Source of the DNA: Escherichia coli | Lineage (GTDB): Bacteria; Pseudomonadota; Gammaproteobacteria; Enterobacterales; Enterobacteriaceae | Assembly (NCBI RefSeq): GCF_050920415.1 | Contig: NZ_CP169309.1 | Reading direction: 5' to 3' (one strand) | Length of the DNA stretch: 64,000 nucleotides | Part shown: positions 36,401 to 54,186 of the stretch, piece by piece | How positions within the stretch are numbered: position 1 is the first letter of the stretch | How the letters are laid out: each line of letters begins with the position of its first letter | Program-made: the position numbers and the translations under genes | The notes under the pieces: model-generated | Seen by the model: only the letters and a program-made list of their open reading frames with translations | Databases searched by the model: none | What the model was told of the DNA's origin: nothing

Positions 36401-39400
36401 ACTTCGCCGCTGGCAAGCCCCGCCCCCAGCGAACCGGTCAGCGTGAGCGTGGTATCGCTGGTGATAAAGTCGGTGGCCGAACTCCCCGTATCGGTGCTGA
36501 TGCTGGCGATGGTGAGCACCTGCGCCGGGTTAACGGTGTCAATCTGCGCCGACTGGCTGCCGGTTGCGCCAACGTTGCCCGCTAAATCAACCACCCGCAC
36601 CTGCCAGGTGGTGGTGCCGTTGGTCAGCGTACGCCCGTCCACATATGTCCAGTTCAGACCGTCTGCGGCAACGGTCACGTTCACCCAGGTTGAGCCGTTG
36701 TCGGTACTGATTTGCGCGAACTCATTAGCGCCGAGCGCCGCGCCCAGCACGCCGCGCACGGTAAGCGTGGTGTCGCTGGTAATAAAATCGCTGCTGCTGG
36801 CTCCGGTGTCATCGCTGATACCGGTAATAGTGATGCTTTTCGCCGCTTCCGGGATGATGGTGTCGACCACCACATTTTGCGTCGCGGTCTGCCCGACGTT
36901 CCCCGCCAGATCCACCACCCGCACCGTGTAGTTCCAGGTGCCGTCGGTCAGTGTGCGACCATCGGCATAGCTCCAGCTGGTGCCGATAACGGTTAACGTA
37001 GCCCAGGTAACGCCACCATCAAGGCTGATTTGCGCCCGTTCATCTGCCGCCAGCGCCGCGCCGAGCGTCCCGCGCACGGTCAGCGTAGTGTCACGGGTCA
37101 CAAAATCGCTGCTGCTTAACCCGGTGTCATCGCTGATGCCCGCAATGACGATGGTTTTGCTCGCCAGCGGCGCGGTGGTATCCACGGTGACTATCTGGCT
37201 GGCGGTCGCGCCGATATTTCCGGCGGTGTCGATCACCCGTACCTGATAGTTGTAGTTACCGTCGGTCAGCGTGCGCCCGTCAAGATAAGTCCAGGTTAAT
37301 CCATTTACCGCCAGATTCTGCCAGGTGGTGCCGCCATCGATACTGATTTGCGCGAACTCACCAGCAGAGAGCGCCGCGCCGAGCGTACCACTCACCGCAA
37401 GCGTCGTGTCGCTGGTGACAAAATCATTAGTAATCAGACCTGTATCGGTGGTGATCGCGCTAATGGCGATGGTTTTCACCGCGGGATCTGGCGCAGTAGT
37501 GTCGATCACCACATTCTGGCTATCAGTCGCCCCGACGTTGCCCGCCGCATCAATAACCCGCACCTGATAGAGATAGTTACCATCGGTCAGCGTGCGGCTG
37601 TCGTTATAGCGCCAGGTCGTGCCAGTAACGGTAAGCGTGCTCCAGGTTATACCGCCGTCGATACTGATTTGCGCCGTCTCGTTACTGGCAAGCGCGGCGG
37701 TGAGTGAGCCGTTGACCACCACCGGGCTGACGCTGGTGATAAAGTCGCTGGCGCTAAGGCCAGTGTCGGCTTGCAGGGAATCAATATTAATGCCCATCGC
37801 CGGGGCGCTGAGATCGACGGTAATGGTGTGATTGCTGCTACCGATGTTGCCAATGGCATTGCTCACCGAAGCGTTAATCACATAGGCATTGCCGTCCGCC
37901 AGCGCGGTGACATCGGCGCTGCCGAGGGTGTAGCTCCAGCTACCGCCGGTCTGTACCGTGGTGGTGTAGGTTTTGCCATTTAAGGTCAGGGTTAGCGTCT
38001 GCCCGACCGGTGCGGTCGTGGTGCCGCTGATAACCAAAGACGCGCCGTGTTCCGCCGCGTTCACTACATCATCGCCCGCAAAGGTGTTGATGGTGACGGT
38101 GGGCACGTCGCCATTCAACGTCACGCCACGGCTGGCGCTACCGGGGTTTCCAGCCTGATCGCTGACCGTCGCGCTGATGGTGTAGCTGCCGTCGCTTAAT
38201 CCGGCAAACTGCTGCGCCGGAATAAATACCGACCAGCTTCCGCCACTGCCGACCGTTGCGGTCCAGGTCTGTCCGTTAAAGGTGACGGTGACAGTCTGAC
38301 CTACTTCGGCGGTGGTGGTGCCGCTGATAGTCTGCCCGGCAAGCTGTTCGGCGTTGTTGATAATATCGTCACCCGCAACGGTGGCGATGGTGACCGTCGG
38401 CGCAACGGTGTCAACAGTCAGGGCGTGCGTGGTTTGACCGGGGTTACCGGCGCGATCGTTCACGCTGGCGGTAATGGTCTGCGCGCCTTGCCCGAGTGCT
38501 GCCAGATCCGCCGCAGGCACGTTCAGCGCCCAGGTGCCATTGGCGGCAACCGTGGCGGTATAGGTTTTGCCGCCAAAGGTGACAGTGACCGTCTGCCCCA
38601 CTTCCGCGCTGGTCGAGCCGTTAAGGGTTAACGGCTGCTGCTGTTCGGCGGCGTTGAGTCGGTCATCCGTCGAAACGGTATTAATGTTGATAACCGGTGC
38701 GGTGAGATCCACCGCCACGCTGCGCGAGGCCGTGGCGCTGTTTCCTGCGCTGTCCTGGGCGGAGGCGCTAACCGTGTAGCTGGTGCCATCCGCAAGTGCC
38801 GCGACGTCTGCCGCCGACACATTCACGCTCCAGCTCCCGTTGTTCTGAATGGTGGCGCTGTAGCCCTTGCCATTAAGCAACACGGTCACCACCGTGCCTG
38901 TCGCGAAATTAGTGCCAGTGCCGCTCAGGGTCAGCGCACTGCCTGCTTCGGCGGCGTTAATAATATTATCGCCACTGATGGTGCTGACTGAGAGCGACAC
39001 CACCGCCGTATTGACCTGCACGTTGTGCGTCTGCGTGCTGCTGTTGCCTGCGCTGTCGGTGATGGTGGCGCTGATGGTCACCGTGCCGTCTGCAAGGCCG
39101 GAAACCACGCTGGCTGGCACGCCAACGCTCCAGTTGCCGCTGGCATCGGTGCTGGTGACATACTGCAGCCCGGCGATGGTCACCACCAGGCGGTCACCCG
39201 CCACCGCGCCCGTGGCGGTGCCGCTGATAATCTGCGCCTGAGAGTGTTCGACGTTGTTAATCACGTCATCGCCTGCCACGGTGTTGAAGCTGATGACGGG
39301 CGCGGTGGTATCGACGGTGACGCCTTTGCTGGCGCTGCCAGGGTTACCCGCCAGATCGCTGACCGTGGCGGTCAGGGTGTAGCCGTTATTAGCAAGTGCG

Positions 39401-42400
39401 GTTAAGTCACTGGCAGGCAGCGTTAAGCTCCAGCTGCCGTCTGCCTGCACCGTGGTCTGGTAGTTAGTGCCGTTTAGCGTGACGGTGAGCGTTTGCCCGG
39501 TTTCCGCGGTGCTGGTGCCGGACACCGTGACGCCCGCCGCCGCTTCGCTGGCGTTGATGATGTTATCGCTGGCAATGGTGTTGATGGTCACCGTTGGCGC
39601 AGCGCTATCGATGCTGTATTCATGCGTTGCCGTGGCGCTGTTGCCGTTGACGTTAGTCACCCGTACCTGGGCGCTGGCATCGCCGTCACGAAGAGCCGCC
39701 ATATCCGCTGCCGGAACGGTGGTGCTCCAGCTACCGTTTGCCGCCACCGTGGTGGTGTAGGTTTTGCCGCCAAAGGTAATAGTAACGGTTTGCCCCGCTT
39801 CGACGCCGGACGTGCTGCCGGAAAGCGTTAGCGCCGCGCCTTTTTCGGCGGCGTTAATCACATCATCAGGGGTAATAGCGTTAATGCTGATGGCGACGGT
39901 AGTGAGATCAACGCTCAGCGGATGGGTAATGCTGGTTTGCGTTCCGGCACTGTTCGCGCCGCTAACGGTAATATTCAGCGTTCCCGCAGGCCAGTTACTG
40001 ACATCCGCCGCCGGAATGCCGACGCTCCAGGTGCCGTTCGCCAACACCGTGGCGGCATAAGTTTGGTTATTTATCACCACGGTCAGCGCCGTGCCTGCCG
40101 TAAAGCCGGAGCTGCTCCCGGTAATCACCTGCGCCTGAGCGTGTTCGATGATATTGACCACATCATCTCCTGCGACGGTATCCACCCGCAGACCGGGCAG
40201 ACTGGCATCGATGGTGATATCGCGCGTGCTGCTGCCGGTGTTGCCAACGGCGTTGGTCACCGAGGCATTAACCGTTAATTCACCGTTACCCAGCGCCTGC
40301 CAGTCGGCGGCAGGCACGCTCACATTCCAGCTTAAATCTGGCTGGACGGTGGCGGTGTAAGTTTTACCGCCCAGCGTAACGGTGACGGTGCTGCCCGCCG
40401 CCGCACCGGTTACCTGGCCGCTGATGGTTTGCGCGCTGCCCGCCTCTGAAGCGTTGATAATATCGTCCGTCGCCACCGGATTGATGGTGACGCCCGGCAG
40501 CGCGGTATTGACCTGTACGTTATGGCTGGCGGTGCTGCTGTTGCCCTGAGCGTTGGTAACGCTCGCCGTGACGCTGTAGGTGGCTTCGCCAAGCGCACTG
40601 ACCGCCGAGGCGGGCACGGTGACGCTCCAGTTGCCGGAGGCGTCGGTAGTGGCGCTGTAGTTTTGTCCATTCAGCGTGACGGTGATCGCCGTACCCGCAG
40701 GCTGATCGCTGGTGCCGGAAAGCGCCAGATCAGATCCTTTTTCCGTCGCGTTGATCACGTCATCGCCCGCGATGGTGTTGATGCTAATCGCTGGCGCGGT
40801 GAGGTTAACAGTGACGGTTCGGCTGGCGTCGTCGCTGTTGCCCGCCCTATCGCTAACGCTGGCGGTGATGCTCTGTGCGCCGCTACCGAGCGCCGTAACA
40901 TCCGCCGTCGGTACGCCAACGCTCCAGTTACCGGAGGCATCCAGCGTCGTGGTATACGTTTTGCCATTGAGCACAACGCTCACCACATCGCCCGCTTCCC
41001 CGCCCGTGCTGGTACCGGAGATCACCAGCGCCTGGGCGTGTTCGGCGTCGTTGATGATGTCATCGCCCGCCACGGTGTTAATGGTGAGAACCGGCGCGGT
41101 GGTGTCTACCGCCAGATTATGGCTGGCGCTGCCGGGATTGCCCGCTTTGTCGTTGACCGTGGCGCTGACGGTGTAATTGCTTGCAGTCAGAGCGCCCAGG
41201 GCTGAAGTGGGAACGCTGACGCTCCAGCTACCGTCCGCCTGTACATTGCCGGTGTAGGTTGCGCCGTTAAGAGTGACGGTCACCGTCTGTCCGGTTTCGG
41301 CGGTGCTGGTGCCGCTGATGGTGAGCGGGCTTCCGGCTTCCGTGGCGTTAAGAATATCGTCGCTGGCGATGGTGTTAATGGTGAGCGTCGGTGCGCTGGC
41401 GTCAACGCTATACGCATGAGTTGCCGACGCGCTGTTGCCGCTCGCGCTGCTGACACTGGCCTGCACGTTCGCCGCGCCGTCTGGCAAGGTTGCCAGATCT
41501 GCCGCTGGAACGTTCACGCTCCAGCTACCGTTAGCGGCGACGCTTGCGGTGTAGTTTTTGCCGCCAAAAGTGACGGTAACGGTTTGCCCACTTTCAATTC
41601 CGCTGGTGCTGCCAGAAAGGGTCAGATTGGTGCCTTTTTCGGCGGCGTTAATCACGTCGTCGCTGGCAACGGTGTTGATGCTGATTGCCACCGCCGTTAA
41701 ATCGACGGTGAACGGATGGCTGACGCTGACCGGGTTTCCGGCGCTGCTCTGGCCTGCCACCTCAACGGTTAACGGCCCCGCAGGCCAGGCGCTGACGTTT
41801 GCCGCTGGAATGCCGACGCTCCAGCTCCCGTCTGCCTGTACCGTGGCAGAATAAGCCACACTGTTGATGGTAACCGTCAGCACAGTACCTGCATTCAGGC
41901 CACTACTGCCACCAGTGATCACCAGTGCCTGACCATGCTCGATGCTGTTGACGATATCATCGCCCGCCACGGTATCCACCCGCAGCCCCGGCAGGTTGGC
42001 ATCAATGGTGATATCCCGCGTGCCGCTGCCGGTGTTGCCATTCGCGTTGGTGACCGAGGCGTTAATGGTCAAATCGCCATTTCCCAACGCCTGGAGATCG
42101 GCTGCCGGAACGGTGACGCTCCAACTTAAGTTGCCCTGTACCGTAGCGGTGTAAGTGTTACCGCCCAGCGTCACGGTGACTGTATCGCCTGCGGCGGCGC
42201 GGGTCACCACCCCGCTGATGGTTTGATCGGCCCCGGCTTCGGCGGCGTTGATAATATCGTCGTCAGCCACGGTATTGATGGTGACGCCTGGCAGGCCGCT
42301 GTCGACCAGTAAATTCGCCTGGCTGCTGGCGGTGTTGCCTGCCGCACTGGTGGCGCTGGCGCTGACGGTATAGTTAGCCTGACCTAAGGCCGCCAGATCG

Positions 42401-45400
42401 CTCACCGGTACGGTTAAGGTCCAGTTGCCTGCTGCGTCGGTGGTAGCGCTGTAGTTATGACCGTTGAGCGTGACGGTAACCTGTGCGCCGGTCGCCAGCC
42501 CCGTACTGCTACCGCTGATGGTCAACGGCTGGCCTTTTTCATCGGCGTTCAGGACGTTATCGCTGCTGATGGCGTTAAAGGTAATGGTCGGCAGCCCGGT
42601 ATTGACCGTCACCTGATGGGTGGCGCTGCCGCTGTTTCCGGCGGCGTCAGTGACGCTGGCGTTAATGGTCACCGTGCCGTTTGCCAGTGCCGAAACAACG
42701 CTTGCCGGGACGCCGACGCTCCAGTTGCCGCTGGCATCCAGCACCGTGGTGAAGGTATTTGTGCCGATAGTCACCGTCACGGTGTTACCGGTTGCCGCAC
42801 CCGTGGCGGAGCCGCTGATAATCTGCGCCTGGGCGTGTTCCGTCGCGTTGATCACATCATCACCCGCGACAGTGTTGATGGTGACGACCGGAACGGAAGT
42901 ATCCACCGTCAGGTTGTGGTTAACCGAGGTCGGGTTTCCGGCCTTGTCGCTCACCGCCGCGCTGACGGTGTAGATGCTGGCGGTCAGAGCGCTTAAGTCG
43001 GCTGGCGGTACGCTGATACTCCAGCTGCCGTCCGTTTGTACCGTGCCAGTATAGTTTGCGCCATTGAGCGTGACGGTCACCGTCTGCCCGGCTTCCGCCG
43101 TGCTGCTGCCAGTGATGGTCAGCGCCGCACCCGCTTCGGCGGCGTTAAGAATATCGTCGCCCGCAATGGTGTTAATGGTCACCGTTGGCGCGGTGGCATC
43201 GACGCTGTAAGCGTGGGTAGTGGTGGCACTGTTGCCGTTAACGTTGCTGACGCTGGCCTGTGCGCTGGCATCGCCATCACGCAGGGCCGCCATATCTGCC
43301 GCCGGAACCGTGGTGCTCCAGGAACCATTCGCCGCGACGCTTGCCGTGTAGGTTTTGCCGCCAAAGGTCACGGTGACCGTTTGTCCGGCTTCGACGCCGG
43401 AAGTGCTGCCGGAGAGCGTTAACGCCGCGCCTTTCTCAGCGGCGTTAATCACATCATCGGCGGTAATGGCGTTGATGCTGACCGCCACCGCCGAGAGATC
43501 GACAGTCACCGGATGGGTGACGCTGACCGGGTTTCCGGCAGTAGTGCTGCCGCTCGCCGTAATCGTCACCGCCCCCGCAGGCCAGGCGCTGACATCCACC
43601 GCCGGAACGCCGACGCTCCAGGTGCCATCCGCCAGTACCGCCGCAACATAGGTTTGCCCACTGATGGTCAGCGTGACGTTGCTGCCCGCTGCCAGACCGG
43701 AGCTGCTGCCGGTAATCACCAGCGCCTGATCGTGCTCGATAATGTTGACCACATCATCGCCCGTCACGGTGTCAATCCGCAGACCGGGCAAATTCGCGTC
43801 TATGGTGATTTCACGCGTGCCGTTGCCGGTATTGCCTACGCTGTTTGTCACCGAGGCCGAAATGGTCAGTTCACCGTTGCCCAGCGCCTGTAACGCCGGG
43901 GCCGGAACATCGACGCTCCAGCTAAAATCCGCCTGCACCGTGGCGGTGTAAGTCGCCCCGCCGAGCGTGACGGTCACCGTGTCGCCAGCCGCAGCACCCG
44001 TGACCAGCCCGTTGATAGTTTGATCTGCCCCTGCTTCGGCAGCGTTAATAATATCGTCCGTTGCCACAACGTTAATGGTGACGCCCGGCAGCGCGGTATT
44101 AACCTGCACGTTATGGCTGGCGGAACCGCTGTTACCATCGGTGTCAGTGGCGGAAGCGGTCACCGTATAACTGGCTTCACCGAGGGCGCTCACCCGTGAC
44201 GCCGGAACAGTCACGCTCCAGTTCCCGGAAGCATCGGCAGTGGTGGTGTAATTTTGCCCGTTGAGCGTAACAGTTACCTGCGTGCCCGCAGGCTGGTTGC
44301 TGGTGCCGGAAATCGACAGATCCGCGCCTTTCTCCGTGGCGTTGATGATGTCATCGACGGCGATGGTGTTAATGGCGAGTATCGGTGCACCGAGCGCCAC
44401 GCTGACAGTGTGCGAGGCCGTGCCGCTGTTGCCTGCGGAGTCGGTAACCGTGGCGGTAATGGTCACATCGCCCTGGGCCAGCGCGGAAATCACGCTGGCA
44501 GGCACACCGATGCTCCAGTTGCCGTTGGCGTCCAGCACGGTGGTGTAGGTGGTCGAGCCAATCGTCACGGAAACCGTGTTACCCGTCGTCGCGCCCGTTG
44601 CCGAGCCGCTGATAATCTGCGCCTGAGCATGTTCCGTGGCGTTAATCACGTCATCGCCCGCTACCGTGTTAATGGTGACGACCGGAGCGGCAAGGTCTAC
44701 CGTCAGGTTATGCGTTGCCGAGGCCGGATTTCCGGCTTTGTCGCTTACCGAGGCGTTGACGGTATACGAGCTGGCAGTGAGGTTAGCTAAATCGCCAGTT
44801 GGTACGCTGACGCTCCAGCTCCCGTCTGCCTGCACGTTGCCGCTGTAATTGATGCCGTTTAGCGTCACGGTCACTGTCTGCCCGGCTTCTGCGGTGCTGG
44901 TGCCGCTGATAGTCAGCGCCGATCCCGCTTCGGCGGCATTAAGAATATCGTTGCTGGCAATGGTGTTGATGGTGACGGAGGGCGCGGTGGCATCGACGCT
45001 ATAAACATGCGTTGCCTGGGCGTTGTTACCCGCGACGTTGCTGACGCTGGCCTGGACGTTTGCTGCGCCATCCGGCAAGGTTGCGAGATCGGCGGCTGGG
45101 ATCGTCAGCCCCCAGGTATTATCCGCGGCAACCGTGGTGGTGTAGCTTTTGCCACCGAAAATAACGGTAATGGTCTGCCCCGCTTCCACGCCGGAGGTGG
45201 TGCCGGAAAGCTGCAAATCAGTGCCTTTTTCGGCGGCGTTTATTACATCGTCAGTGGAGAGTGTATTGATGGTAATCGCCACGGCAGCGAGATTGACCGT
45301 GACCGGATGAGTAATGCTGGTTGTGGTTCCTGCGGTATTGGTGCCAGAGACGGCAATATTAACCGTCCCCGCAGGCCAGTCAGCCACGTCCGCTGCCGGA

Positions 45401-48400
45401 ACGCCGACGCTCCAGGTGCCATCGGCGAGTACCGTTGCGCCGTAGGTGACGTTGTTGATGACTACCGTCAACGCCGCGCCCGCCGCCAGTCCGCTACTGC
45501 TACCGGTGACCACCAGCGCCTGAGTGTGCTCAATGCTGTTAATCACATCATCGCCTGCCACGGTATCGACCCGCAGGCCTGGCAGATTGGCGTCTATCAC
45601 GATGTCGTGCGTTGCGGTGCCAGTATTATTTGCGGAATTAGTCACCGAGGCGCTGATGGTCAGTTCACCGTTACCCAGCGCCTGCAAATCTGCCGCAGGC
45701 ACGCTGACGCTCCAGCTTAAATCTGGCTGCACGGTGGCAATGTATTGATTACCACCAATAGTGACAATCACCGTATTCCCCGCAACCGCCGTCCCCGTAA
45801 CCTGTCCGCTGAGGGTCTGGTTAACGGCGATTTCAGCGGCGTTGATAATGTCATCACCCGCCACAGTATTAATGATTACCCCTGGCAGGAGCGATTCGAC
45901 ATTCACCGTATGGGTAGTACTACCGCTGTTACCCGCGCTGTCGGTGGCGCTGGCGCTAATCGAATAAACCGCCTCGCCCAGTGCGCCGACCGCCGAAGCC
46001 GGCACGGTAACGCTCCAGTTGCCGGAGCCGTCGGTGGTGGCGCTGTACGCCAGGCCGTTCAACATCACGGTGACCGTAGTGCCTGCCGCCAGGCCGCTGG
46101 AGACGCCGCTGATGATCAGATCCTGGGTTTTCTCCGCATTATTAATAATGTCATCACCGGAGACAGTGTTAATGGTCAGCGTCGGGCCACTGAGATCAAC
46201 GGTCACATCGTGAGTCGTGCTGTCGCTGTTGCCCGCGCGATCGCTCAGGCTGGCGGTGATGGTCTGGCTACCGGTTGCCAGTGCCGTGACATCCGCCGCC
46301 GGAATACCCACACTCCAGTTACCGGAGGCGTCCAGCGTTGTGGTGTAGTTTTTACCGTTCAGCGTGACGGTCACCACATCGCCTGCCGCCGCGCCCGTAC
46401 TGGTTCCGCTCACCACCAGCGCCTGCCCGTGTTCGATGGCGTTGATAATGTCATCGCCCGCGACGGTGTTAATGGTGAGATCCGGCGCGGTCACGTCCAC
46501 CGCCAGTGCATGATCCGCGCTTGCCGGATTGCCCGCTTTGTCGCTCACCGTGGCGGTCACGGTATAACTGCTGGCGGTTAATCCGCTTAAATCTGTCGCC
46601 GGAACGTTCACACTCCAGGTGCCATCGGCCTGGACGGTAGTCTGGTACGTGTTGTTATTGAGCGTGACAGTCAGCGTCTGCCCGGCCTGCGCCGTGGTGG
46701 TGCCGCTGATGGTTATCCCCGCGCCCGCTTCGCTCACGTTGAGAATATCGTCGCTGGCGATGGTGTTGATGGTCACAAGCGGCGCGGTGGCATCGACGCT
46801 GTACGCGCGATCGGCCTGGGCGCTGTTGCCGTAAATGTTGCTGACACTCGCCTGCACGTTGCCCGCGCCGTCCGGCAACGCAGCGAGATCGGCAGGCGGC
46901 ACATTCACCGTCCAGCTACCGTTGGTTTCCACAGTGGTGGTGTAATTTTTGCCGCCAAAGGTGACGGTCACCGTCTGCCCGGCTTCTACACCGCTGGTAC
47001 TGCCGCTCACCACCAGCGTTTCGCCTTTTTCGACGGCATTGATCACATCATCGCCGGAGAGAGTGTTAATGGTTATGGCGACCGCCGCCAGATCGACGGT
47101 AACCGGATGGGTAATGGTGGAGGTTGTTCCGGCACTGTTGGTGCCGCTTACCGTGATATCCACCGTACCCGCAGGCCAGTTGCTGACGTCTGCCGCCGGA
47201 ACGCCGAGGTTCCATGTGCCGTCGGCTAACACCGTGGCAGCGTAAGTGACGTTGTTAATCACGACCGTTAATGCCGTTCCTGCCGTCAGCCCGGTGCTGC
47301 TACCTGTTATCACCAGCGCCTGATTGTGCTCAATGCTGTTAATAACATCATCGCCCGCTACGGTATCGACCCGCAAACCAGGCAGATTGGCATCGATCGT
47401 AATATCGCGCGAGCCGCTGCCGGTATTACCAACGTCATTGGTGACCGAGACGTTAACTGTCAGGTCGCCGTTACCCAGCGCCTGAATATCCGCCGCTGGA
47501 ACGCTAACACTCCAGCTTAAATTAGCCTGCACCGTGGCGGTGTAGGTGTTGCCGCCCAGCGTGACGGTAACCGTATCCCCCTGCGCTGCGCCCGTGACCT
47601 GGCCGCTGATGGTCTGGGCGTTACCAGATTCAGCGGCGTTAATAATATCGTCAGTCGCCACTGCGTTAATGGTGACGGCAGGCAAGGCGCTGTTGACCAG
47701 CACATTATGGCTGGCGGAATTACTGTTGCCTGCCGTATCAGTGACGTTCGCGGTTACTGTGTAGTTAGCTTCACCCAACGCGCTAACCGCTGACACTGGC
47801 ACCGTGGCGCTCCAGTTGCCACTGCTATCGGTGGTAGCGGTGTAATTTTGTCCGTTCAGCGTCACTGTAATGGTGGTGCCTGCGGGCTGATTACTGGTGC
47901 CAGTAATTTGCAGATCCGCGCCTTTTTCTGTGGCGTTAATCACGTCATCGCTGGCGATAGTGTTGATGCCAATGGTTGGCGCGGTGAGATTTACGGTGAC
48001 CGTGCGGCTGGCATCATCGCTGTTGCCTGCCGCATCGGTAATGGCCGCAGTGATGGTTTGCGGGCCGCTGCCCAGCGCAGTGACGTCTGCTGCCGGAACG
48101 CCGACGCTCCAGTTGCCGGAGGCGTCCAGCGTGGTAGTGTAGGTTTTACTGTTTAACGTGATGGTGATGACATCGCCCGCTTCGCCGCCAGTGCTGGAAC
48201 CGGAGATCACCAGCGCCTGTCCGTGTTCGGCGGCGTTAATGATGTCATCGCCGGAGACGGTGTTAATGGTTAAAACTGGCACGGTGAGATCCACCGCCAG
48301 GCCGTGAGTGGCGGTCGCCGGGTTACCCGCTTTGTCGCTTACCGAGGCGCTGACCGTGTACGGGCTGGCGGTCAGATTGCTGAGATCTGTTGTCGGCACG

Positions 48401-51400
48401 CTGACGCTCCAGCTACCGCCCGCCTGAACGGTGCCGATGTAAGCCACACCATTAAGCGTGACGGTTACCGTTTGCCCCGCTTCGGCGGTGCTGGTGCCGC
48501 TGATGGTTAACGGATTTCCCGCCTCAGCGGCGTTAAGAATATCGTCGGTGGCGATGGTGTTAATGGCAAGCGTCGGGGCCGTGGCATCGACGCTATAGGC
48601 GTGGGTTGCCGAAGCCGTGTTGCCGTTAATATTGCTGACACTGGCCTGTACCGTGGCGTCGCCGTCACGTAACGCGCTGAGATCGGCGGTGGGTAGCGTA
48701 GTTGTCCAGCTACCATCGCCCGCTACGGTAGCGATATAGGTTTTGCCGCCAAAGGTGACGGTGACGGTTTGCCCCGCTTCCACGCCGGAAGTGCTGCCGG
48801 AAAGGGTTAAATCTGCCCCTTTTTCGGCGGCGTTAATCACATCATCGCCGGAAACGGTGTTAATGGAGATCGCCACCGCCGCCAGATCGACGGTGACCGG
48901 ATGGGTGATGGTGGAGGTTGTTCCGGCAGTGTTAGTGCCGCTTACCGTGATATCCACCGTCCCCGCAGGCCAGTTGCCCACATCTGCCGCCGGAACGCCA
49001 ACGCTCCATGTGCCATCGGCTAATACTGTCGCGCCATAGGTGACGTTATTGATCACCACCGTCAGCGCCGCGCCCGCCGCCAGCCCGCTGCTGCTACCGG
49101 TTATCACCAGTGCCTGACCGTGCTCGATGCTGTTAACCACATCATCGCCCGCCACGGTATCAACGCGCAGACCTGGCAGATTGGCATCTATCACAATATC
49201 GCGCGCACCGCTGCCAGTATTACCCACGCCGTTGGTTACCGAGGCGTTAACTGTCAGGTCGCCATTACCGATGGCCTGAATATCCGCCGCCGGAACGTCC
49301 ACGCTCCAGCTAAAATTGCCCTGCACAGTAGCGGTGTAGGTTTTCCCGCCAAGCGTCACGGTAACCGTATCGCCCGCCGCCGCGCCCGTCACCTGGCCGC
49401 TGATGGTCTGCGCCACGCCCGATTCCGCCGCGTTAATAATATCGTCGGTCGCCACCGGATTAATGGTGACACCCGGCAGCGCGGTATTCACCTCCACGTT
49501 ATGGCTGGCGGAATTGCTGTTGCCCGCGCTGTCGGTGACGTTCGCCGTCACCGTGTAACTGGCTTCGCCCAGCGCACCGACGGCAGAGGCTGGCACCGTG
49601 GTGCTCCAGTTGCCTGCGGCGTCCGTCGTGGCGGAGTAATTTTGCCCGTTAAGCGTCACCGTAATTGTGGTGCCTGTTGGCTGATTACTGGTGCCGGAAA
49701 TTTGCAGATCCGCGCCTTTTTCCGTGGCATTAATCACGTCATCGCTGGCAATGGGGTTGATGCCAATGGTCGGCGCGGTAAGGTTAACGGTGACCGTGTG
49801 CGTCTCGTTGTCGCTGTTGCCAGCCACATCGGTAACGGTCGCCGTCACGGTTTGCGGGCCGCTGCCCAGCGCAGAGACATCCGCAGCCGGAACGCCGACG
49901 CTCCAGTTGCCGGAGGCATCCAGGGTGGTGGTGTAGGTTTTATTGTTTAGCGTGACGCTGACGATATCGCCCGCCTCCCCGCCAGTGCTGGAACCGGAAA
50001 TCACCAGCGCCTGCCCGTGTTCGGCGGCGTTAATAATATCATCGCCCGCAATGGTGTTAATGGTCAGTACCGGAACGGTGAGATCCACCGCCAGATTATG
50101 CGTGGTGCTCGCCGGGTTGCCCGCTTTGTCATTAACCGTGGCGGTCAGGGTGTGGCTGCCATCCGTCAATGCCTCAAGGTCTGCCGCCGGAATAGTAATA
50201 CTCCAGCTGCCGTCGGCCTGTACCGTTGCCTGATAGGTCTGCACGGTCGGGCTATTGAGCGTTACCGTAACAATCTGCCCCGCTTCAGCGGTGGTGGTGC
50301 CGCTCACCGTCACACCCGCATCGGCTTCGCTGGCGTTGACGATATTGTCGCTGGCGACGGTATTGATAATGATGGTTGGCGCGCTGCTATCGACGCTGTA
50401 GTTATGCACCGCCGAGGCGCTATTGCCATTGATATTGCTGACGCTGGCCTGCGCGGAGGCGCTGCCCTCAGGTAATGCTGCCAGATCGGCGGCAGGAACG
50501 GTGGCAGTCCAGCTACCATCGCTCGCCACGCTGGCGGTGTAATTTTTCCCGCCAAAGGTGACGGTGACGGTTTGACCGGGTTCTACATTCGTGGTGGTGC
50601 CGGAAAGGGTTAAATCAGCGCCTTTTTCTGCGGCGTTAATCACGTCGTCCGTAGCGATGGTGTTGATGGTGATCGCCGCTGGCGTGAGATCGACCGTTAC
50701 CGGATGCGTAATGCTTATCGGATTTCCGGCGCTACTTTCCCCGGACACAGTAACCGTCACTGTTCCCGCAGGCCAGGCGCTAACCTGCGCCGCCGTGACG
50801 CCCACGCTCCAGCCACCATCGGCCAGCACCGCAGTGGTGTATTCCACATTGTTAATCATAACGGTAAGCGGCGTGCCTTCTGCCAGCCCCGAGCTGCTGC
50901 CGCTGACCACCAGCGCCTGCCCGTGTTCGATGATATTGACCACATCATCACCCGCCACCGTATCGACCCGCAGACCGGGCAGATTGGCGTCGATGGTGAT
51001 ATCCCGCGTGCCGCTGCCGGTGTTGCCGTTTTGATTGGTGACCGAGGCGCTCACCGTTAAATCACCATTACCCAGCGCCTGAATATCCGCCGCCGGAACG
51101 CTCACGCTCCAGCTTAAACCGGCCTGCACGGTGGCGGTGTAAGTATTACCGCCAAGCGTAACGGTTACCGCGTCGCCAACGGCGGCTCCGGTAACCTGCC
51201 CGCTGATGGTTTGCGCAACGCCCGCTTCGGCGGCGTTAATAATATCGTCGGTTGCCACCGGGTTAATGGTCACGCCGGGCAACGCGCTGTCGACCAGCAT
51301 GTTATGGCTGGCGGTGGCGCTGTTACCGATACCGCTGGTCACTGCTGCTGTCACCGTATAGTTGGCCTGGCCCAAGGCGGTTACCGCCGATGCCGGAACG

Positions 51401-54186
51401 GTGACGCTCCAGTTGCCGGAAGAGTCGGTCGTGGTGGTGTAATTTTGCCCGTTCAGCGTCACTGTGATGGCGGTATTGGCAGGCTGATCGCTGGTGCCGG
51501 TAATCTGGAGATCGGCTCCTTTTTCGCTGGCGTTGATCACATCATCGCCCGCGATAGTGTTAATGCCAATCACCGGCGCGGCGGTATCAACCGTGACGGT
51601 CAATGACTGGCTGCCGCTGTTTCCAGCGCGGTCAGTCACTGAAACGTTGATCGGATAACTGCCGTCCACCAGTCCGCTGACAACGGAGGCCGGAACGCCC
51701 AGACTCCAGTTGCCGGAAGCATCCACCACCGTGGTGTAATCCACATTATTCAGCGTCACGGTGACAATATCACCCGCCTGCGCGCCGGTGACCGTGCCGC
51801 TGATAATTTGCGCCTGAGTGTGTTCCGGCGTGTTAATGACGTTATCGGTTGCCACCGGATTAATGGTCACCACGGGCGGCGTGGCATCGACCAGCGCCAC
51901 CCGTGAGACGCTGGTCGGATTACCCGCGACATCGTTCACGCTGGCGGTCACCGTGGCGTTGCCGTCAGCCAGTACGCCAACGTTGGCGGCGGGAACGGTC
52001 ACGCTCCAGGTGCCATCTGACTGCACGACGCCCTGATAGGTCTGCCCATTAAGCGTGACGGTCACCGTCTGCCCCGACTGGGCGTCGGTGATGCCAGTGA
52101 TTTGCAGATCCTGACCACTTTCGGCGGCGTTGATGATGTTATCAGCCGTCAGCGAGTCAATGCTTAAGGCCGGGGCCTGGCTGTCGACGGTAATGGTGCG
52201 GGAGGTGTTGCCGGTATTGCCGCTGAGATCCGTCACTGAAGCGGTAATCGCCACCGCGCCGTCAGGCAGATTTCCCATCGCGGCGGCAGGTACCGTCAGA
52301 CTCCAGGAGCCATCGGCCTGTACGGTAGTGGTAAAACTCTGTCCAGCCAGGGTTACTGTGACAGTTTGTCCTGTCTCGGCCTGTTGAGTGCTACCGGTAA
52401 GGGTCAGTGGCGCACCTTTTTCTGCGCCACTGATAATGTCATCGCCGGAGACGGTGTTAATGGTGATCAACGGAGAAACACCGACCAGCGTGATTGCTCG
52501 AGACGCCGCGCCGGTATTTCCTGCAGCATCTGTCACGGTGACGAAAATCGTATTGGCTCCGCGATCCAGCGTGCGGGTTACCGCCGGGTCCAGTGCCACA
52601 TTCCAGCTGCCATCTGCCAGCACGATGCCCGTCAGGACATGAGTGCCCAATTTCACCGTTACCGTATCGCCTGGAGAAGCACCGCTGACTTGTCCGGAGA
52701 TGATCTGCGCGACGGCCTGCTCGGCATTATTAAGAATATCGTCGCCCGCCACGGTGTTAACGCTGACCACGGGTGCTGAGGTGTCTACCGTGAAATTCGC
52801 GCTGTTGCTGGTGGTGTTCCCTGCCCGATCGCTGACACTGGCATTGACAGCGTAGTTCCCCTCCGCCAGTGCCTGGACCTCCGTGGCAGGCAGCGTCACT
52901 TGCCAGGTTCCGTCGCTACCGACGGTTGCTGAATGGCTTTTCCCGTTAACGTTCAGTGTTACGGTTTGCCCGGCTTCTGCGTTCGAAGTGCCGCTCACTA
53001 CCAGCGCGGCGTTATGTTCTGAGGCGCTGACAATGTTGTCCTGAGCGATGGTGTTGATAGCAAGTGTTGGCGGCTGGGTATCGACCGTTAGCAGCTGCGC
53101 TCCGGTGACCGTATTGCCCGTGGCATCTTTCCCACTGACCAGCACCGCCTGATTCCCTTCGCCTAACGCTTGCGCGTCGGCGGTCGGCACCTGCACGCTC
53201 CACGCGCCGTTAGCGCCTACGCTGGTGGTGTAGGTTTTACCATTTAGCGTGACGGTGAGTTCGGTTCCCTGCGCCAGGTTGCTCGTCGTGCCAGAAAGCG
53301 TAAACCCGGCGGCCTGTTCGCTGGCGTTAATGATGTTATCGCCTGCGGTGGTGGCAACCTGTACGACAGCCTGACTATTGTCGATGGTTAACGTTATCGA
53401 CCCAGCGTTGGTAATGGTGCTGCCGACGATTTGCACCACTGACCAGGTATGTTCGCCCGCGCTTTGTGTGGGTAAATCGACGCTCCAGCGCCCGTTGCTG
53501 TCTACCTGAGTGCTGGCGATAGTATTGCCGTTACTGTCTTTGATCTGAATGGTCGCCCCCGCCTGACCGCTGCCGCTAAAGGTTGGCGTGGTGTCATCGG
53601 TGATATCGTTGGCGGAAAGAATACCGCGTTGATCGCCCTGATTATCGGTTACCAAAAACGATGGCGTGGCATTGCCGGGTTCGGCTGGCGGTGGGTTGTT
53701 AACCACTTCAGTTTTTGAGTCATCATCACCACCGCTTGCCAGTAAAGCGCCAAGCGCGCCACCACCTACCGCGGCACCCGCTAACCATCCCCACGGGAAG
53801 GCACTGGTCTGAGCGACGGTATCAAGATACGGCGCAATGCTTTCAATTGCGGTAGTCTGAGCGGTCAGCTCCACGGGCGCTAATCCACCCGCCGCGGTAT
53901 CGGCAAAGGTGACATGAGTCAGCTGTTGACCATCGGCAAACACCAGTTGAGATTGTTCGCTGGTATTTGCCGCTTGCAGGAAATAACCGTTGCAGCGGAT
54001 CACCGTGCCGTCTTGCATATAGATCAACAGGTCATTTCCGTCACGGACATAACGCACAACGGCAGATGCCTGAGCATGAACCTGCACTACAGAGGGCTCA
54101 TAAATGACAACCGTAACGTCGCCTGGATTAATCAGCGTTTGTTTGACGGATGTTTTTCGCGAAATAACATCAATAATCAGGCTCAT
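33412..54186 (-). CDS. giant T1SS-secreted repeat adhesin (6,924 aa; BapA/SiiE/LapA-like) with Ig-like repeat array, FG-GAP/VCBS-like region, RTX-like repeats and C-terminal secretion signal
   Basis: Single uninterrupted 20.8-kb ORF; dozens of about 100-aa Ig-like repeats (…TINTVAGDDIINAAEHGQALVISGS…GNWSVGVPAADV…); Asp-rich motifs DFDGDGDMDLF, DWDHDGLMDI and DYDWDGAVDV; glycine/aspartate nonapeptides GSSGDNQLEGRGGNDTLNIGNGGHDTL near the C-terminus; flanked by T1SS OMP, ABC and MFP genes. Confidence 0.9.
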   Translation of the reverse strand: MSLIIDVISRKTSVKQTLINPGDVTVVIYEPSVVQVHAQASAVVRYVRDGNDLLIYMQDGTVIRCNGYFLQAANTSEQSQLVFADGQQLTHVTFADTAAGGLAPVELTAQTTAIESIAPYLDTVAQTSAFPWGWLAGAAVGGGALGALLASGGDDDSKTEVVNNPPPAEPGNATPSFLVTDNQGDQRGILSANDITDDTTPTFSGSGQAGATIQIKDSNGNTIASTQVDSNGRWSVDLPTQSAGEHTWSVVQIVGSTITNAGSITLTIDNSQAVVQVATTAGDNIINASEQAAGFTLSGTTSNLAQGTELTVTLNGKTYTTSVGANGAWSVQVPTADAQALGEGNQAVLVSGKDATGNTVTGAQLLTVDTQPPTLAINTIAQDNIVSASEHNAALVVSGTSNAEAGQTVTLNVNGKSHSATVGSDGTWQVTLPATEVQALAEGNYAVNASVSDRAGNTTSNSANFTVDTSAPVVSVNTVAGDDILNNAEQAVAQIISGQVSGASPGDTVTVKLGTHVLTGIVLADGSWNVALDPAVTRTLDRGANTIFVTVTDAAGNTGAASRAITLVGVSPLITINTVSGDDIISGAEKGAPLTLTGSTQQAETGQTVTVTLAGQSFTTTVQADGSWSLTVPAAAMGNLPDGAVAITASVTDLSGNTGNTSRTITVDSQAPALSIDSLTADNIINAAESGQDLQITGITDAQSGQTVTVTLNGQTYQGVVQSDGTWSVTVPAANVGVLADGNATVTASVNDVAGNPTSVSRVALVDATPPVVTINPVATDNVINTPEHTQAQIISGTVTGAQAGDIVTVTLNNVDYTTVVDASGNWSLGVPASVVSGLVDGSYPINVSVTDRAGNSGSQSLTVTVDTAAPVIGINTIAGDDVINASEKGADLQITGTSDQPANTAITVTLNGQNYTTTTDSSGNWSVTVPASAVTALGQANYTVTAAVTSGIGNSATASHNMLVDSALPGVTINPVATDDIINAAEAGVAQTISGQVTGAAVGDAVTVTLGGNTYTATVQAGLSWSVSVPAADIQALGNGDLTVSASVTNQNGNTGSGTRDITIDANLPGLRVDTVAGDDVVNIIEHGQALVVSGSSSGLAEGTPLTVMINNVEYTTAVLADGGWSVGVTAAQVSAWPAGTVTVTVSGESSAGNPISITHPVTVDLTPAAITINTIATDDVINAAEKGADLTLSGTTTNVEPGQTVTVTFGGKNYTASVASDGSWTATVPAADLAALPEGSASAQASVSNINGNSASAVHNYSVDSSAPTIIINTVASDNIVNASEADAGVTVSGTTTAEAGQIVTVTLNSPTVQTYQATVQADGSWSITIPAADLEALTDGSHTLTATVNDKAGNPASTTHNLAVDLTVPVLTINTIAGDDIINAAEHGQALVISGSSTGGEAGDIVSVTLNNKTYTTTLDASGNWSVGVPAADVSALGSGPQTVTATVTDVAGNSDNETHTVTVNLTAPTIGINPIASDDVINATEKGADLQISGTSNQPTGTTITVTLNGQNYSATTDAAGNWSTTVPASAVGALGEASYTVTANVTDSAGNSNSASHNVEVNTALPGVTINPVATDDIINAAESGVAQTISGQVTGAAAGDTVTVTLGGKTYTATVQGNFSWSVDVPAADIQAIGNGDLTVNASVTNGVGNTGSGARDIVIDANLPGLRVDTVAGDDVVNSIEHGQALVITGSSSGLAAGAALTVVINNVTYGATVLADGTWSVGVPAADVGNWPAGTVDITVSGTNTAGTTSTITHPVTVDLAAVAISINTVSGDDVINAAEKGADLTLSGSTSGVEAGQTVTVTFGGKTYIATVAGDGSWTTTLPTADLSALRDGDATVQASVSNINGNTASATHAYSVDATAPTLAINTIATDDILNAAEAGNPLTISGTSTAEAGQTVTVTLNGVAYIGTVQAGGSWSVSVPTTDLSNLTASPYTVSASVSDKAGNPATATHGLAVDLTVPVLTINTVSGDDIINAAEHGQALVISGSSTGGEAGDVITITLNSKTYTTTLDASGNWSVGVPAADVTALGSGPQTITAAITDAAGNSDDASRTVTVNLTAPTIGINTIASDDVINATEKGADLQITGTSNQPAGTTITVTLNGQNYTATTDSSGNWSATVPVSAVSALGEANYTVTANVTDTAGNSNSASHNVLVNSALPAVTINAVATDDIINAAESGNAQTISGQVTGAAQGDTVTVTLGGNTYTATVQANLSWSVSVPAADIQALGNGDLTVNVSVTNDVGNTGSGSRDITIDANLPGLRVDTVAGDDVINSIEHNQALVITGSSTGLTAGTALTVVINNVTYAATVLADGTWNLGVPAADVSNWPAGTVDITVSGTNSAGTTSTITHPVTVDLAAVAITINTLSGDDVINAVEKGETLVVSGSTSGVEAGQTVTVTFGGKNYTTTVETNGSWTVNVPPADLAALPDGAGNVQASVSNIYGNSAQADRAYSVDATAPLVTINTIASDDILNVSEAGAGITISGTTTAQAGQTLTVTLNNNTYQTTVQADGTWSVNVPATDLSGLTASSYTVTATVSDKAGNPASADHALAVDVTAPDLTINTVAGDDIINAIEHGQALVVSGTSTGAAAGDVVTVTLNGKNYTTTLDASGNWSVGIPAADVTALATGSQTITASLSDRAGNSDSTTHDVTVDLSGPTLTINTVSGDDIINNAEKTQDLIISGVSSGLAAGTTVTVMLNGLAYSATTDGSGNWSVTVPASAVGALGEAVYSISASATDSAGNSGSTTHTVNVESLLPGVIINTVAGDDIINAAEIAVNQTLSGQVTGTAVAGNTVIVTIGGNQYIATVQPDLSWSVSVPAADLQALGNGELTISASVTNSANNTGTATHDIVIDANLPGLRVDTVAGDDVINSIEHTQALVVTGSSSGLAAGAALTVVINNVTYGATVLADGTWSVGVPAADVADWPAGTVNIAVSGTNTAGTTTSITHPVTVNLAAVAITINTLSTDDVINAAEKGTDLQLSGTTSGVEAGQTITVIFGGKSYTTTVAADNTWGLTIPAADLATLPDGAANVQASVSNVAGNNAQATHVYSVDATAPSVTINTIASNDILNAAEAGSALTISGTSTAEAGQTVTVTLNGINYSGNVQADGSWSVSVPTGDLANLTASSYTVNASVSDKAGNPASATHNLTVDLAAPVVTINTVAGDDVINATEHAQAQIISGSATGATTGNTVSVTIGSTTYTTVLDANGNWSIGVPASVISALAQGDVTITATVTDSAGNSGTASHTVSVALGAPILAINTIAVDDIINATEKGADLSISGTSNQPAGTQVTVTLNGQNYTTTADASGNWSVTVPASRVSALGEASYTVTASATDTDGNSGSASHNVQVNTALPGVTINVVATDDIINAAEAGADQTINGLVTGAAAGDTVTVTLGGATYTATVQADFSWSVDVPAPALQALGNGELTISASVTNSVGNTGNGTREITIDANLPGLRIDTVTGDDVVNIIEHDQALVITGSSSGLAAGSNVTLTISGQTYVAAVLADGTWSVGVPAVDVSAWPAGAVTITASGSTTAGNPVSVTHPVTVDLSAVAVSINAITADDVINAAEKGAALTLSGSTSGVEAGQTVTVTFGGKTYTASVAANGSWSTTVPAADMAALRDGDASAQASVSNVNGNSATTTHAYSVDATAPTVTINTIAGDDILNAAEAGAALTITGSSTAEAGQTVTVTLNGANYTGTVQTDGSWSISVPPADLSALTASIYTVSAAVSDKAGNPTSVNHNLTVDTSVPVVTINTVAGDDVINATEHAQAQIISGSATGAATGNTVTVTIGTNTFTTVLDASGNWSVGVPASVVSALANGTVTINASVTDAAGNSGSATHQVTVNTGLPTITFNAISSDNVLNADEKGQPLTISGSSTGLATGAQVTVTLNGHNYSATTDAAGNWTLTVPVSDLAALGQANYTVSASATSAAGNTASSQANLLVDSGLPGVTINTVADDDIINAAEAGADQTISGVVTRAAAGDTVTVTLGGNTYTATVQGNLSWSVTVPAADLQALGNGDLTINASVTNANGNTGSGTRDITIDANLPGLRVDTVAGDDIVNSIEHGQALVITGGSSGLNAGTVLTVTINSVAYSATVQADGSWSVGIPAANVSAWPAGPLTVEVAGQSSAGNPVSVSHPFTVDLTAVAISINTVASDDVINAAEKGTNLTLSGSTSGIESGQTVTVTFGGKNYTASVAANGSWSVNVPAADLATLPDGAANVQASVSSASGNSASATHAYSVDASAPTLTINTIASDDILNATEAGSPLTISGTSTAETGQTVTVTLNGATYTGNVQADGSWSVSVPTSALGALTASNYTVSATVNDKAGNPGSASHNLAVDTTAPVLTINTVAGDDIINDAEHAQALVISGTSTGGEAGDVVSVVLNGKTYTTTLDASGNWSVGVPTADVTALGSGAQSITASVSDRAGNSDDASRTVTVNLTAPAISINTIAGDDVINATEKGSDLALSGTSDQPAGTAITVTLNGQNYSATTDASGNWSVTVPASAVSALGEATYSVTASVTNAQGNSSTASHNVQVNTALPGVTINPVATDDIINASEAGSAQTISGQVTGAAAGSTVTVTLGGKTYTATVQPDLSWNVSVPAADWQALGNGELTVNASVTNAVGNTGSSTRDITIDASLPGLRVDTVAGDDVVNIIEHAQAQVITGSSSGFTAGTALTVVINNQTYAATVLANGTWSVGIPAADVSNWPAGTLNITVSGANSAGTQTSITHPLSVDLTTVAISINAITPDDVINAAEKGAALTLSGSTSGVEAGQTVTITFGGKTYTTTVAANGSWSTTVPAADMAALRDGDASAQVRVTNVNGNSATATHEYSIDSAAPTVTINTIASDNIINASEAAAGVTVSGTSTAETGQTLTVTLNGTNYQTTVQADGSWSLTLPASDLTALANNGYTLTATVSDLAGNPGSASKGVTVDTTAPVISFNTVAGDDVINNVEHSQAQIISGTATGAVAGDRLVVTIAGLQYVTSTDASGNWSVGVPASVVSGLADGTVTISATITDSAGNSSTQTHNVQVNTAVVSLSVSTISGDNIINAAEAGSALTLSGTGTNFATGTVVTVLLNGKGYSATIQNNGSWSVNVSAADVAALADGTSYTVSASAQDSAGNSATASRSVAVDLTAPVININTVSTDDRLNAAEQQQPLTLNGSTSAEVGQTVTVTFGGKTYTATVAANGTWALNVPAADLAALGQGAQTITASVNDRAGNPGQTTHALTVDTVAPTVTIATVAGDDIINNAEQLAGQTISGTTTAEVGQTVTVTFNGQTWTATVGSGGSWSVFIPAQQFAGLSDGSYTISATVSDQAGNPGSASRGVTLNGDVPTVTINTFAGDDVVNAAEHGASLVISGTTTAPVGQTLTLTLNGKTYTTTVQTGGSWSYTLGSADVTALADGNAYVINASVSNAIGNIGSSNHTITVDLSAPAMGINIDSLQADTGLSASDFITSVSPVVVNGSLTAALASNETAQISIDGGITWSTLTVTGTTWRYNDSRTLTDGNYLYQVRVIDAAGNVGATDSQNVVIDTTAPDPAVKTIAISAITTDTGLITNDFVTSDTTLAVSGTLGAALSAGEFAQISIDGGTTWQNLAVNGLTWTYLDGRTLTDGNYNYQVRVIDTAGNIGATASQIVTVDTTAPLASKTIVIAGISDDTGLSSSDFVTRDTTLTVRGTLGAALAADERAQISLDGGVTWATLTVIGTSWSYADGRTLTDGTWNYTVRVVDLAGNVGQTATQNVVVDTIIPEAAKSITITGISDDTGASSSDFITSDTTLTVRGVLGAALGANEFAQISTDNGSTWVNVTVAADGLNWTYVDGRTLTNGTTTWQVRVVDLAGNVGATGSQSAQIDTVNPAQVLTIASISTDTGSSATDFITSDTTLTLTGSLGAGLASGEVAQISLDGGATWTTLTTNGTQWTYTDSRTLTDGSYVYQVRVLDLAGNTGPVVSKTVVVDTINPTATPTIVSYTDDVGQRQGTLSSSQATDDTTPLLNGVLSAPLASGEVVYLYRNGLLLGAVTMVGALNWTYSDSGLVSGAYTYSARVVDLAGNITSSSDFILTVDTSIPTTLAQITNQTTRDTTPIISGVITAALASGQYVEVVINGKTYTSQPGGAVVVDPAHNTWYVQLPDTDALAASATAYNVTAQVKSSAGNGNTANVSTGTVTVNAAIDYTPTWTTTSKSTAWGLTYGLDTHGMWTVLANQQIMQSTDPLTWSKTALTLVQSGNNYATSSIADYNRNGTGDLFITRDDYGTGYINGFTNNGDGTFSSAIQVNVGTLTWYGSIVAFDKEGDGYLDFWIGDAGGPDSNTFLWNNAGTLTGNSTTANNGGSATVGGAVTGYLSLNEGSGVDLNNDGRIDLVQHTFNLNNNFTLSSLISQGNGTFVWGQNTVNTFLSSPGSGGNSASVSMTWADFDGDGDMDLFLPASQGRANYGSLLFNTNGVLGSPVAVGATATTYASQFSLAVDWDHDGLMDIARIAQTGQSYLYTNVSNASNWTQSALGGSQSGTTSGVAAMDYDWDGAVDVLVTKQSGSVFLIRNTNTVSYGTSLHLRITDPNGINVYYGNTVKLYNSAGVLVATQIINPQSGMGVNDTSALVNFYGLNAGETYNAVLIKSTGTTASNIDQTVNTTWGGLQATDATHAYDLSAEAGTASNNGKFVGTGYNDTFFATAGTDTYDGSGGWVYSSGTGTWLANGGMDVVDFRLSTVGVTANLSVTTAQATGFNTSTFTNIEGISGSNFNDTLTGSSGDNQLEGRGGNDTLNIGNGGHDTLLYKLLNASDATGGNGSDVVNGFTVGTWEGTADTDRIDIRELLQGSGYTGNGKASYVNGVATLDAQVGNIGDFVKVTQSGSDTIVQIDRDGTGGGFATTNVVTLTGVHTDLATLLANHQLMVV
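38000..52000. repeat. tandem array of about 1.8-kb super-repeats inside the adhesin gene (about 7-8 copies; approximate bounds)
   Basis: Antisense ORF-track artefacts with near-identical sequence recur at 1,794-1,797-bp spacing (39764, 41558, 43355, 46949, 48743); the motif LPGLRVDTVAGDDV recurs 7 times about 600 aa apart in the protein. Confidence 0.7.

Follow-up and report, generated by a model that had tools for sequence, protein, structure and literature searches.

Seven diverged copies of a six-domain unit in the extender of the Escherichia coli giant adhesin SiiEA

The giant RTX adhesins BapA and SiiE of Salmonella and LapA of Pseudomonas share one architecture, in which an N-terminal prefix is followed by an extender of bacterial immunoglobulin-like (BIg) domains and by RTX repeats, and in which secretion depends on a dedicated type I secretion system (T1SS). 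In Escherichia coli, the protein SiiEA has the same architecture, the likeness being one of layout. Its gene lies in O-island 28 (OI-28) of O157:H7 strain EDL933, where it is represented by Z0609 and Z0615 (rtxA28/rtxB28), and corresponds to ECUMN_0527 in strain UMN026; the O157 locus is needed for early adherence and colonisation (PMC12758282). Here we analyse the allele carried by a 64,000-nucleotide stretch of E. coli DNA (contig NZ_CP169309.1 of assembly GCF_050920415.1; hereafter the window), which is the same gene at the same site (cueR-ybaT) and in the same operon. The gene and its role are already known, and patterned arrays of RTX extenders have been described in general. We report that the stalk of this adhesin is very probably an ancient array of seven copies of a six-domain block (a hexad), which have diverged in E. 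coli and whose number is nearly fixed.

The extender domains have described homologues in region II (RII) of the Marinomonas primoryensis adhesin MpIBP (also MpAFP; PDB 4P99 and 4KDV), the motifs DDxINxxE and WSV being common to both. Each protein region is the extender of an RTX adhesin exported by a T1SS, and RII domains were shown to form a Ca2+-stiffened rod of ~190 Å per four domains (PMC4083281), a property that SiiEA would share by homology. The two differ in the composition of their repeats, since RII repeats a single 104-aa domain ~120 times without change even in the DNA, whereas the SiiEA array is built of six types whose copies are 67-80% identical in nucleotides. More broadly, the relevant passages of a survey of RTX extenders (bioRxiv 10.1101/2025.09.30.679566) describe near-identical neighbours, repeated dissimilar pairs, complex blocks and fully diverged arrays, and relatives of SiiEA cover this same spectrum with periods of 1, 2, 3, 4, 5, 6 and 11 domains. 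Those passages contain neither a six-type period nor a cross-genus pattern, and SiiEA is not among the species they treat; the terms 'tandem' and 'copy number' are absent from the OI-28 paper (PMC12758282). Within the limited literature to which we had access, we found no prior description of a six-type super-repeat shared across genera or of its stability in populations.

In the window, siiEA is a single intact open reading frame (ORF) on the minus strand (33412-54186) encoding 6,924 aa, and a 100%-identical RefSeq record from the cueR-ybaT locus (WP_000052497.1) is labelled 'siiEA: BapA-related adhesin SiiEA'. Its predicted features are those of the BapA/LapA class of giant RTX adhesins: an N-terminal prefix, an Ig-like extender array with multiple Big_13/Big_6 matches, C-terminal RTX repeats and a predicted secretion signal, together with the T1SS genes that the class requires. 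Tandem Repeats Finder found nothing in the gene, its period limit being 500 bp and the domains being too diverged, and custom autocorrelation and segmentation with a hidden Markov model (HMM) were used in its place. Autocorrelation of the gene's nucleotides peaked at an offset of 1,794 nt, where whole-gene identity was 44% compared with ~27-33% off register. Along offsets of 1794, 1797 and 1800 nt, local identity was 65-86% over gene nucleotides ~3,900-13,500 and ~30% elsewhere. An HMM built from the protein itself divided SiiEA into 60 domains of ~100 aa (D01-D60). Cognate domains, six apart, were 55-91% identical in amino acids and other pairs 33-55%; mean identity at lag 6 was 0.715, above every one of 10,000 shuffles of the domain order (0.483 +/- 0.018; z = 13). 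The stretch from D07 to D48 (window 39322-51897) divides into seven units in tandem, in each of which six domain types follow one another in the fixed order a-f. Cognates are closer to one another than neighbours are, beyond chance, and the types recur in fixed cyclic order, as in a higher-order super-repeat. From the N terminus to the C terminus, all on the minus strand, the protein is laid out as follows:

53794-54174, minus strand: BapA_N prefix (retention-module) domain, aa 5-131 (Pfam PF22783, E = 7e-18)
51898-53673, minus strand: U0, degenerate leading unit of six diverged Ig-like domains, D01-D06 (38-40% aa identity to U1-U7; Big_13/Big_6 Pfam matches)
50095-51897, minus strand: U1, D07-D12, 1,803 bp (67-72% nucleotide identity to other units)
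48301-50094, minus strand: U2, D13-D18, 1,794 bp (closest unit pair with U3, 80% nucleotide and 82% aa identity)
46507-48300, minus strand: U3, D19-D24, 1,794 bp (query unit matching PDB 4P99, E = 7e-66)
44707-46506, minus strand: U4, D25-D30, 1,800 bp (contains marker domain D26)
42913-44706, minus strand: U5, D31-D36, 1,794 bp (placed by domain identities and unit alignment)
41116-42912, minus strand: U6, D37-D42, 1,797 bp (contains marker domain D38)
39322-41115, minus strand: U7, D43-D48, 1,794 bp (contains marker domain D48)
37498-39321, minus strand: U8, degenerate trailing unit, D49-D54 (42-46% aa identity to U1-U7)
35629-37497, minus strand: distal diverged Ig-like domains D55-D60 (self-built HMM, domain identities and Pfam)
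34513-35388, minus strand: FG-GAP-like repeat region, a candidate ligand-binding region (three Pfam FG-GAP_3 matches, E = 4e-8 to 3e-7)
33784-34122, minus strand: RTX nonapeptide (Ca2+-binding) repeats before the C-terminal secretion signal (HemolysinCabind, E = 2e-4; GGNDTL and GGHDT motifs)

The first domain of U8, D49, is still type-a-like, with 59-66% identity. The N-terminal prefix domain also contains, at aa 97-100 (window 53887-53898), a TAAG motif that resembles the LapG cleavage site of LapA-type adhesins.

The period is also visible in a marker peptide of type d, LPGLR[VI]DT, which occurs seven times at spacings of 598-601 aa, and in five 98-aa ORFs in the ORF list that recur on the antisense strand at spacings of 1794, 1797, 3594 and 1794 bp:

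39764, 41558, 43355, 46949 and 48743 (together spanning 39764-49039), plus strand: recurring 98-aa antisense ORFs

We rejected these ORFs as genes and regard them as by-products of a repeated coding strand that is rich in G and C at third codon positions (GC3 = 0.70). A three-domain sub-period at an offset of 897 nt was treated as weak, amounting to a rise of only 2 points in amino acid identity at lags 3, 9 and 15. The preliminary description of this DNA had reported a higher-order period of ~1.8 kb inside the adhesin gene, at about 38000-52000, with six Ig-like domains per unit in 7-8 copies, recurring antisense ORFs and a sequence returning every ~600 residues, and had foreseen a long-period diagonal in a self-comparison. 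This anatomy is borne out throughout: the units are 1,794-1,803 bp long, and there are seven of them plus a degenerate eighth.

The copies are strongly diverged from one another. Pairs of units are 64-82% identical in amino acids, and exact intragenic repeats reach 35 nt in the window allele and no more than 38 nt in any of the seven E. coli alleles compared. Between units, synonymous divergence (dS) is 0.73-1.31 and the ratio of nonsynonymous to synonymous divergence (dN/dS) 0.14-0.24; between orthologous alleles of different strains the values are 0.20-0.30 and 0.08-0.09. By these estimates dS between units is close to saturation and every copy is under purifying selection, and because it is several times the allelic dS, the age of the duplications exceeds that of E. 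coli allelic diversity several times over. For every domain from D07 to D48, the nearest match is its same-numbered counterpart in strain JNE21-009 (86-96% nucleotide identity, compared with 63-86% for the best paralog), and since positional orthologs are far closer than paralogs, the domains have not undergone concerted evolution. The domain maps of six other alleles show the same order except for deletions, with a few best matches falling on the cognate of a neighbouring unit (e.g. D13 to D19). Domain types within one unit differ in their closest paralog, which points to an old, mosaic history of duplication and conversion, and the lack of long identical tracts speaks against recent gene conversion. 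Near-identical DNA with long recombination tracts, as in hypervariable (contingency-type) repeats, was not found in the array.

The siiEA alleles of different E. coli strains are themselves unusually diverged, with the dS of 0.20-0.30 corresponding to ~8% of nucleotides, yet they are under strong constraint, with dN/dS of 0.08. Alleles at least 95% identical to that of the window were found in only ~16 of 959 carriers.

Copy number was surveyed in 5,426 complete E. coli genomes. The gene is carried by 959 of them, always on the chromosome, and in 535 a single place accounts for at least 80% of the query. In a rank-spread sample of full-coverage loci, 29 of 29 span 21,547-21,604 bp, no more than 54 bp from the query's own 21,601 bp. 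Distinctive marker domains of five units (D12, D23, D26, D38 and D48) were searched separately, with the following results:

D12 (U1): matched in 957 genomes, at most one copy
D23 (U3; window 46804-47103): matched in 944 genomes, one copy except in one genome with two places
D26 (U4): matched in 567 genomes, at most one copy
D38 (U6): matched in 946 genomes, at most one copy
D48 (U7): matched in 955 genomes, at most one copy

The two D23 places in one genome may stem from duplication of a unit, giving an eight-unit allele, or from a fragment; no unit expansion was identified among the carriers surveyed. Isolates did not differ frequently in copy number, and unit-scale deletions were seen at only two junctions. 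The first, a deletion of 1,800 bp removing D24-D29, leaves an intact ORF of 6,324 aa, and its junction is present at 99% identity or more in 86 genomes, which indicates one inherited event. The second, a deletion of 3,591 bp removing D30-D41, occurs in one O157-lineage genome, CDC#03-98 (NZ_CP022689.1); its junction is unique among the 5,426 genomes and has an 8-nt ambiguity in a region of ~74% paralog identity. A two-parent breakpoint scan was usable only for allele pairs without other indels, and uninformative pairs were discarded.

Smaller and more disruptive changes are also found. Whereas the window allele is intact, in that of O157:H7 two domains, D26 and one distal domain, are missing and codon 1462, on the D13/D14 boundary, is TAG (window ~49801-49803, where the codon is ACG), and the Prokaryotic Genome Annotation Pipeline (PGAP) flags the O157:H7 gene as a pseudogene. 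The two 'RTX proteins' rtxA28 and rtxB28 (Z0609/Z0615) of PMC12758282 thus appear to derive from a single ancestral siiEA gene, of which each would be one half. Other pseudogenised or shortened siiEA alleles are scattered among the genomes. A shortened SiiEA of 3,651 aa (WP_247155312.1, E. coli), encoded on a 36.9-kb contig and either genuine or an artefact of assembly, has D25 joined directly to D58, with ~32 domains missing.

Beyond E. coli, one unit was used as query against 1.84 billion representative proteins, all of which were scanned, and yielded 4,308 relatives. Per-lag identity profiles gave a period of six in the closest relatives, while others have near-identical lag-1 arrays, periods of 2, 3, 4, 5 or 11 domains, or no period. 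Typing each domain independently by its best hit recovered the cyclic order abcdef in WP_129995849 of Enterobacter cloacae, in Jejubacter sp. L23, in Dryocola and in further relatives. Between E. coli and E. cloacae, the distinctive subtypes of a and b stand in collinear order, a sign of partial orthology at the level of units. The E. cloacae adhesin (CP035738.1, at 7001-25006 of the fetched locus) has a period of ~1,797 bp, with identities of 55-89% and a longest exact repeat of 41 nt. The same ~1,797-bp period is found in Jejubacter sp. L23 (CP138199.1, adhesin at 7001-24796 of the fetched locus), where adjacent units are 95-99% identical and exact repeats reach 295 nt; this array looks recently amplified or homogenised. 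Judged from these sequences, the hexad is the amplification unit of this clade and is older than E. coli. Both the E. cloacae and the Jejubacter loci have an unannotated gene of ~290 aa just after the gene for the membrane-fusion protein (MFP) of the secretion system.

Domain comparisons relate the hexad to a known fold. Unit U3 matched the RII tetra-tandemer of MpAFP (PDB 4P99) with E = 7e-66 over several consecutive domains, and across the 42 domains of the array the DDxINxxE motif hardly varies, so that both whole-domain homology and conserved acidic motifs place these domains among RII-type extenders. Positions equivalent to the linker Ca2+ ligands of RII are mostly D or N, and are D, N, S or T across all types. 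The domains of SiiEA would accordingly depend on Ca2+ for folding and for the rigidity of their linkers, and at ~4.7 nm per RII domain some 60 domains would extend to a rod of ~0.25-0.3 µm. Each type has conserved residues of its own. Type d has 21, among them LPGLR[VI]DT, a peptide that recurs periodically in E. cloacae as well, and it is this type that is left out of the RII alignment of the unit. An earlier idea that type d lacks a hairpin Ca2+ ligand and serves as a periodic hinge was dropped, as the RII alignment shows N, S or T there in type d and D or N elsewhere.

We propose that the six-domain block was duplicated segmentally in an ancestor of several Enterobacteriaceae lineages and that, in E. 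coli, the copies then diverged to synonymous saturation under purifying selection. Diverged copies would offer no long identical tracts for homologous recombination; each unit would thereby have acquired a positional identity of its own, and the number of units would have become nearly fixed. Residual change would consist of rare in-register deletions at microhomologies of 8-15 nt. In the cell, the array would act as a stiff rod, made rigid by Ca2+, that keeps the distal FG-GAP/RTX region at a distance from the surface, while the N-terminal prefix domain would retain SiiEA at the outer-membrane pore of the T1SS. In E. coli, recombination by RecA is efficient only with ~25-30 bp of perfect identity, and it falls steeply with divergence through mismatch repair. 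A practical parallel is found in the work on MpIBP, whose authors recoded the RII repeats to ~70% DNA identity in order to stop recombination in E. coli (PMC4083281), which is the level found in the natural SiiEA units.

The anatomy of the array, the divergence of its units, its stability in the population, the hexad of other genera and the homology with RII are direct observations. Several points nevertheless weigh against the account built on them. That copy number is nearly fixed because the units lack long identical tracts is inferred from the general homology requirements of RecA, and selection for stalk length could explain the stability equally well. The rod shape and Ca2+ dependence of SiiEA are transferred from RII by homology, and the length given above is an extrapolation. 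An error of assembly could account for the two-unit deletion, which is known from one genome. Orthology of units across genera is only partial, with many domains ambiguous, and although the TolC-adhesin-ABC-MFP cassette (ABC, ATP-binding cassette transporter) is kept in E. cloacae and Jejubacter, it lies at different chromosomal sites; for both reasons the age of individual units is uncertain.

One alternative is that the hexad has been kept as a functional module, setting a structural or binding period of ~28 nm in which type d would be a specialised junction, linker or interaction site. Several of the observations above would fit such a module, namely the conservation of types and their order across genera despite saturated dS, the type-specific residues that are most numerous in type d, the failure of the RII alignment to cover type d, and the removal of exactly six domains in the deletion allele that survives with an intact ORF. 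Against it, shared ancestry and purifying selection on individual domains (dN/dS 0.08-0.24) suffice to conserve the types, and recombination guided by homology yields in-register deletions in any case; the RII Ca2+-ligand positions are mostly D or N in every type, d included, and give no clear signal of a hinge, and relatives with periods of 1, 2, 3, 4 or 5 domains, or with none, evidently also work. We therefore consider a selected module improbable. If it were true, the hexad would be the unit by which stalk length evolves across Enterobacteriaceae, and a bacterial counterpart of the titin-type super-repeat. In the super-repeats of titin and nebulin in eukaryotic muscle, distinct Ig-type domains follow one another in a fixed order and cognates are more alike than neighbours, but the lineage is unrelated and the comparison with SiiEA is one of analogy only. 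The period of titin matches a partner filament; no such partner is known for SiiEA.

An ancient, diverged and nearly fixed array also has to be weighed against a dynamic one, in which unequal homologous recombination between near-identical units would tune the length of the stalk from strain to strain. This was the prediction of the preliminary description, which had called the units near-identical and had expected their copy number to vary among isolates. Exact in-register deletions of one and two units do exist, and the six-unit allele has become fixed with an intact ORF in 86 genomes, so that the mechanism finds support in these rare events. The remaining parts of the prediction fail in E. 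coli. The units are not near-identical, at 67-80% of nucleotides, 64-82% of amino acids, dS of 0.73-1.31 and longest exact tracts of 35-38 nt; domains are positional orthologs across strains; and the comparison across isolates found the copy number nearly fixed in the 959 carriers, with a constant span in the sampled full-length loci (29 of 29), markers in single copy in all carriers but one, and no expansion. We regard recombinational tuning of stalk length in E. coli as very unlikely. The recombination model does fit Jejubacter sp. L23, with its nearly identical units and long exact repeats, and it probably applies elsewhere in the family.

With an array that is old, diverged and nearly constant in number, the stalk of a clinically relevant adhesin (SiiEA/OI-28, needed for adherence of enterohaemorrhagic E. 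coli) is a stable hexad array in which every position can be addressed, rather than a slippery repeat, and single units can consequently be typed, targeted by polymerase chain reaction and cleanly deleted. Natural length variants, with seven units, six units or fewer domains, could be used to ask how stalk length affects adhesion. Within the family, E. coli occupies the diverged end of the spectrum and Jejubacter the near-identical end, which makes these arrays well suited to work on the ageing of higher-order repeats.

A further claim of the preliminary description was that the locus is liable to collapse in short-read assembly. Many database fragments of siiEA do come from contigs of 2-4 kb, and a protein search by word index yielded no protein longer than ~1,300 aa, with many of the hits being partial. 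Two O157 contigs of ~3.5 kb carry D44-46 followed by D35-43, a cyclic permutation of a two-unit (12-domain) block, and the O157 allele has a 38-nt exact repeat at gene nucleotides 10450 and 14041, 3,591 nt apart, which fits the permuted contigs. These are probably artefacts of a cycle in a de Bruijn graph, and they imply that short-read assembly with small k can become tangled here. The array as a whole should not collapse, its units being too diverged, and complete genomes agree with one another, so that the liability persists only in this weaker form. That the repeat number itself is an artefact of collapse or expansion, as fragmentary short-read contigs and the two permuted blocks might suggest, is scarcely credible, given that hundreds of independently assembled complete genomes agree on locus length and domain order, that all unit markers are single-copy and that units diverged by 20-33% can be placed uniquely by ordinary reads.

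The surroundings of siiEA are those of the known island. The window is E. coli chromosomal DNA, identical to strain MFDS1022581 (NZ_CP169399.1) at 54000-62000 and 33000-54600 (100% identity), and the siiEA island lies between cueR and ybaT/glsA/copA, the site that in O157:H7 is O-island 28. The adhesin gene is flanked by a complete T1SS in the order TolC-adhesin-ABC-MFP, all three secretion proteins scoring above curated NCBIfam cutoffs:

54295-55650, minus strand: TolC-family outer-membrane component of the T1SS (TIGR01844, 411 bits, cutoff 225)
31246-33408, minus strand: T1SS ABC permease/ATPase of LssB type (TIGR03375, 836 bits, cutoff 693)
30074-31249, minus strand: T1SS HlyD-family membrane-fusion protein (TIGR01843, 328 bits, cutoff 209)

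Elsewhere in the window, a stretch of low GC content (32-41%) at ~6300-16800 includes, besides several hypothetical genes, an ISAs1 remnant and a type VI secretion system VgrG/TssI gene (13117-15555). Upstream of this stretch, an otherwise identical RefSeq record has an IS2 of ~1,337 bp that the window lacks. Between small hypothetical genes and cueR, the plus strand at 28446-29669 encodes a 409-aa hypothetical protein (WP_000898666.1) for which no Pfam match at E <= 0.001 and no NCBIfam match was found; its gene was not at the equivalent position in five other loci where this stretch was fetched. Adjoining the island, at 26662-27678 on the plus strand, lies the gene for a small protein of 338 aa with a YadA-like trimeric autotransporter C-terminal domain, which is kept in the other strains whose flank was fetched.

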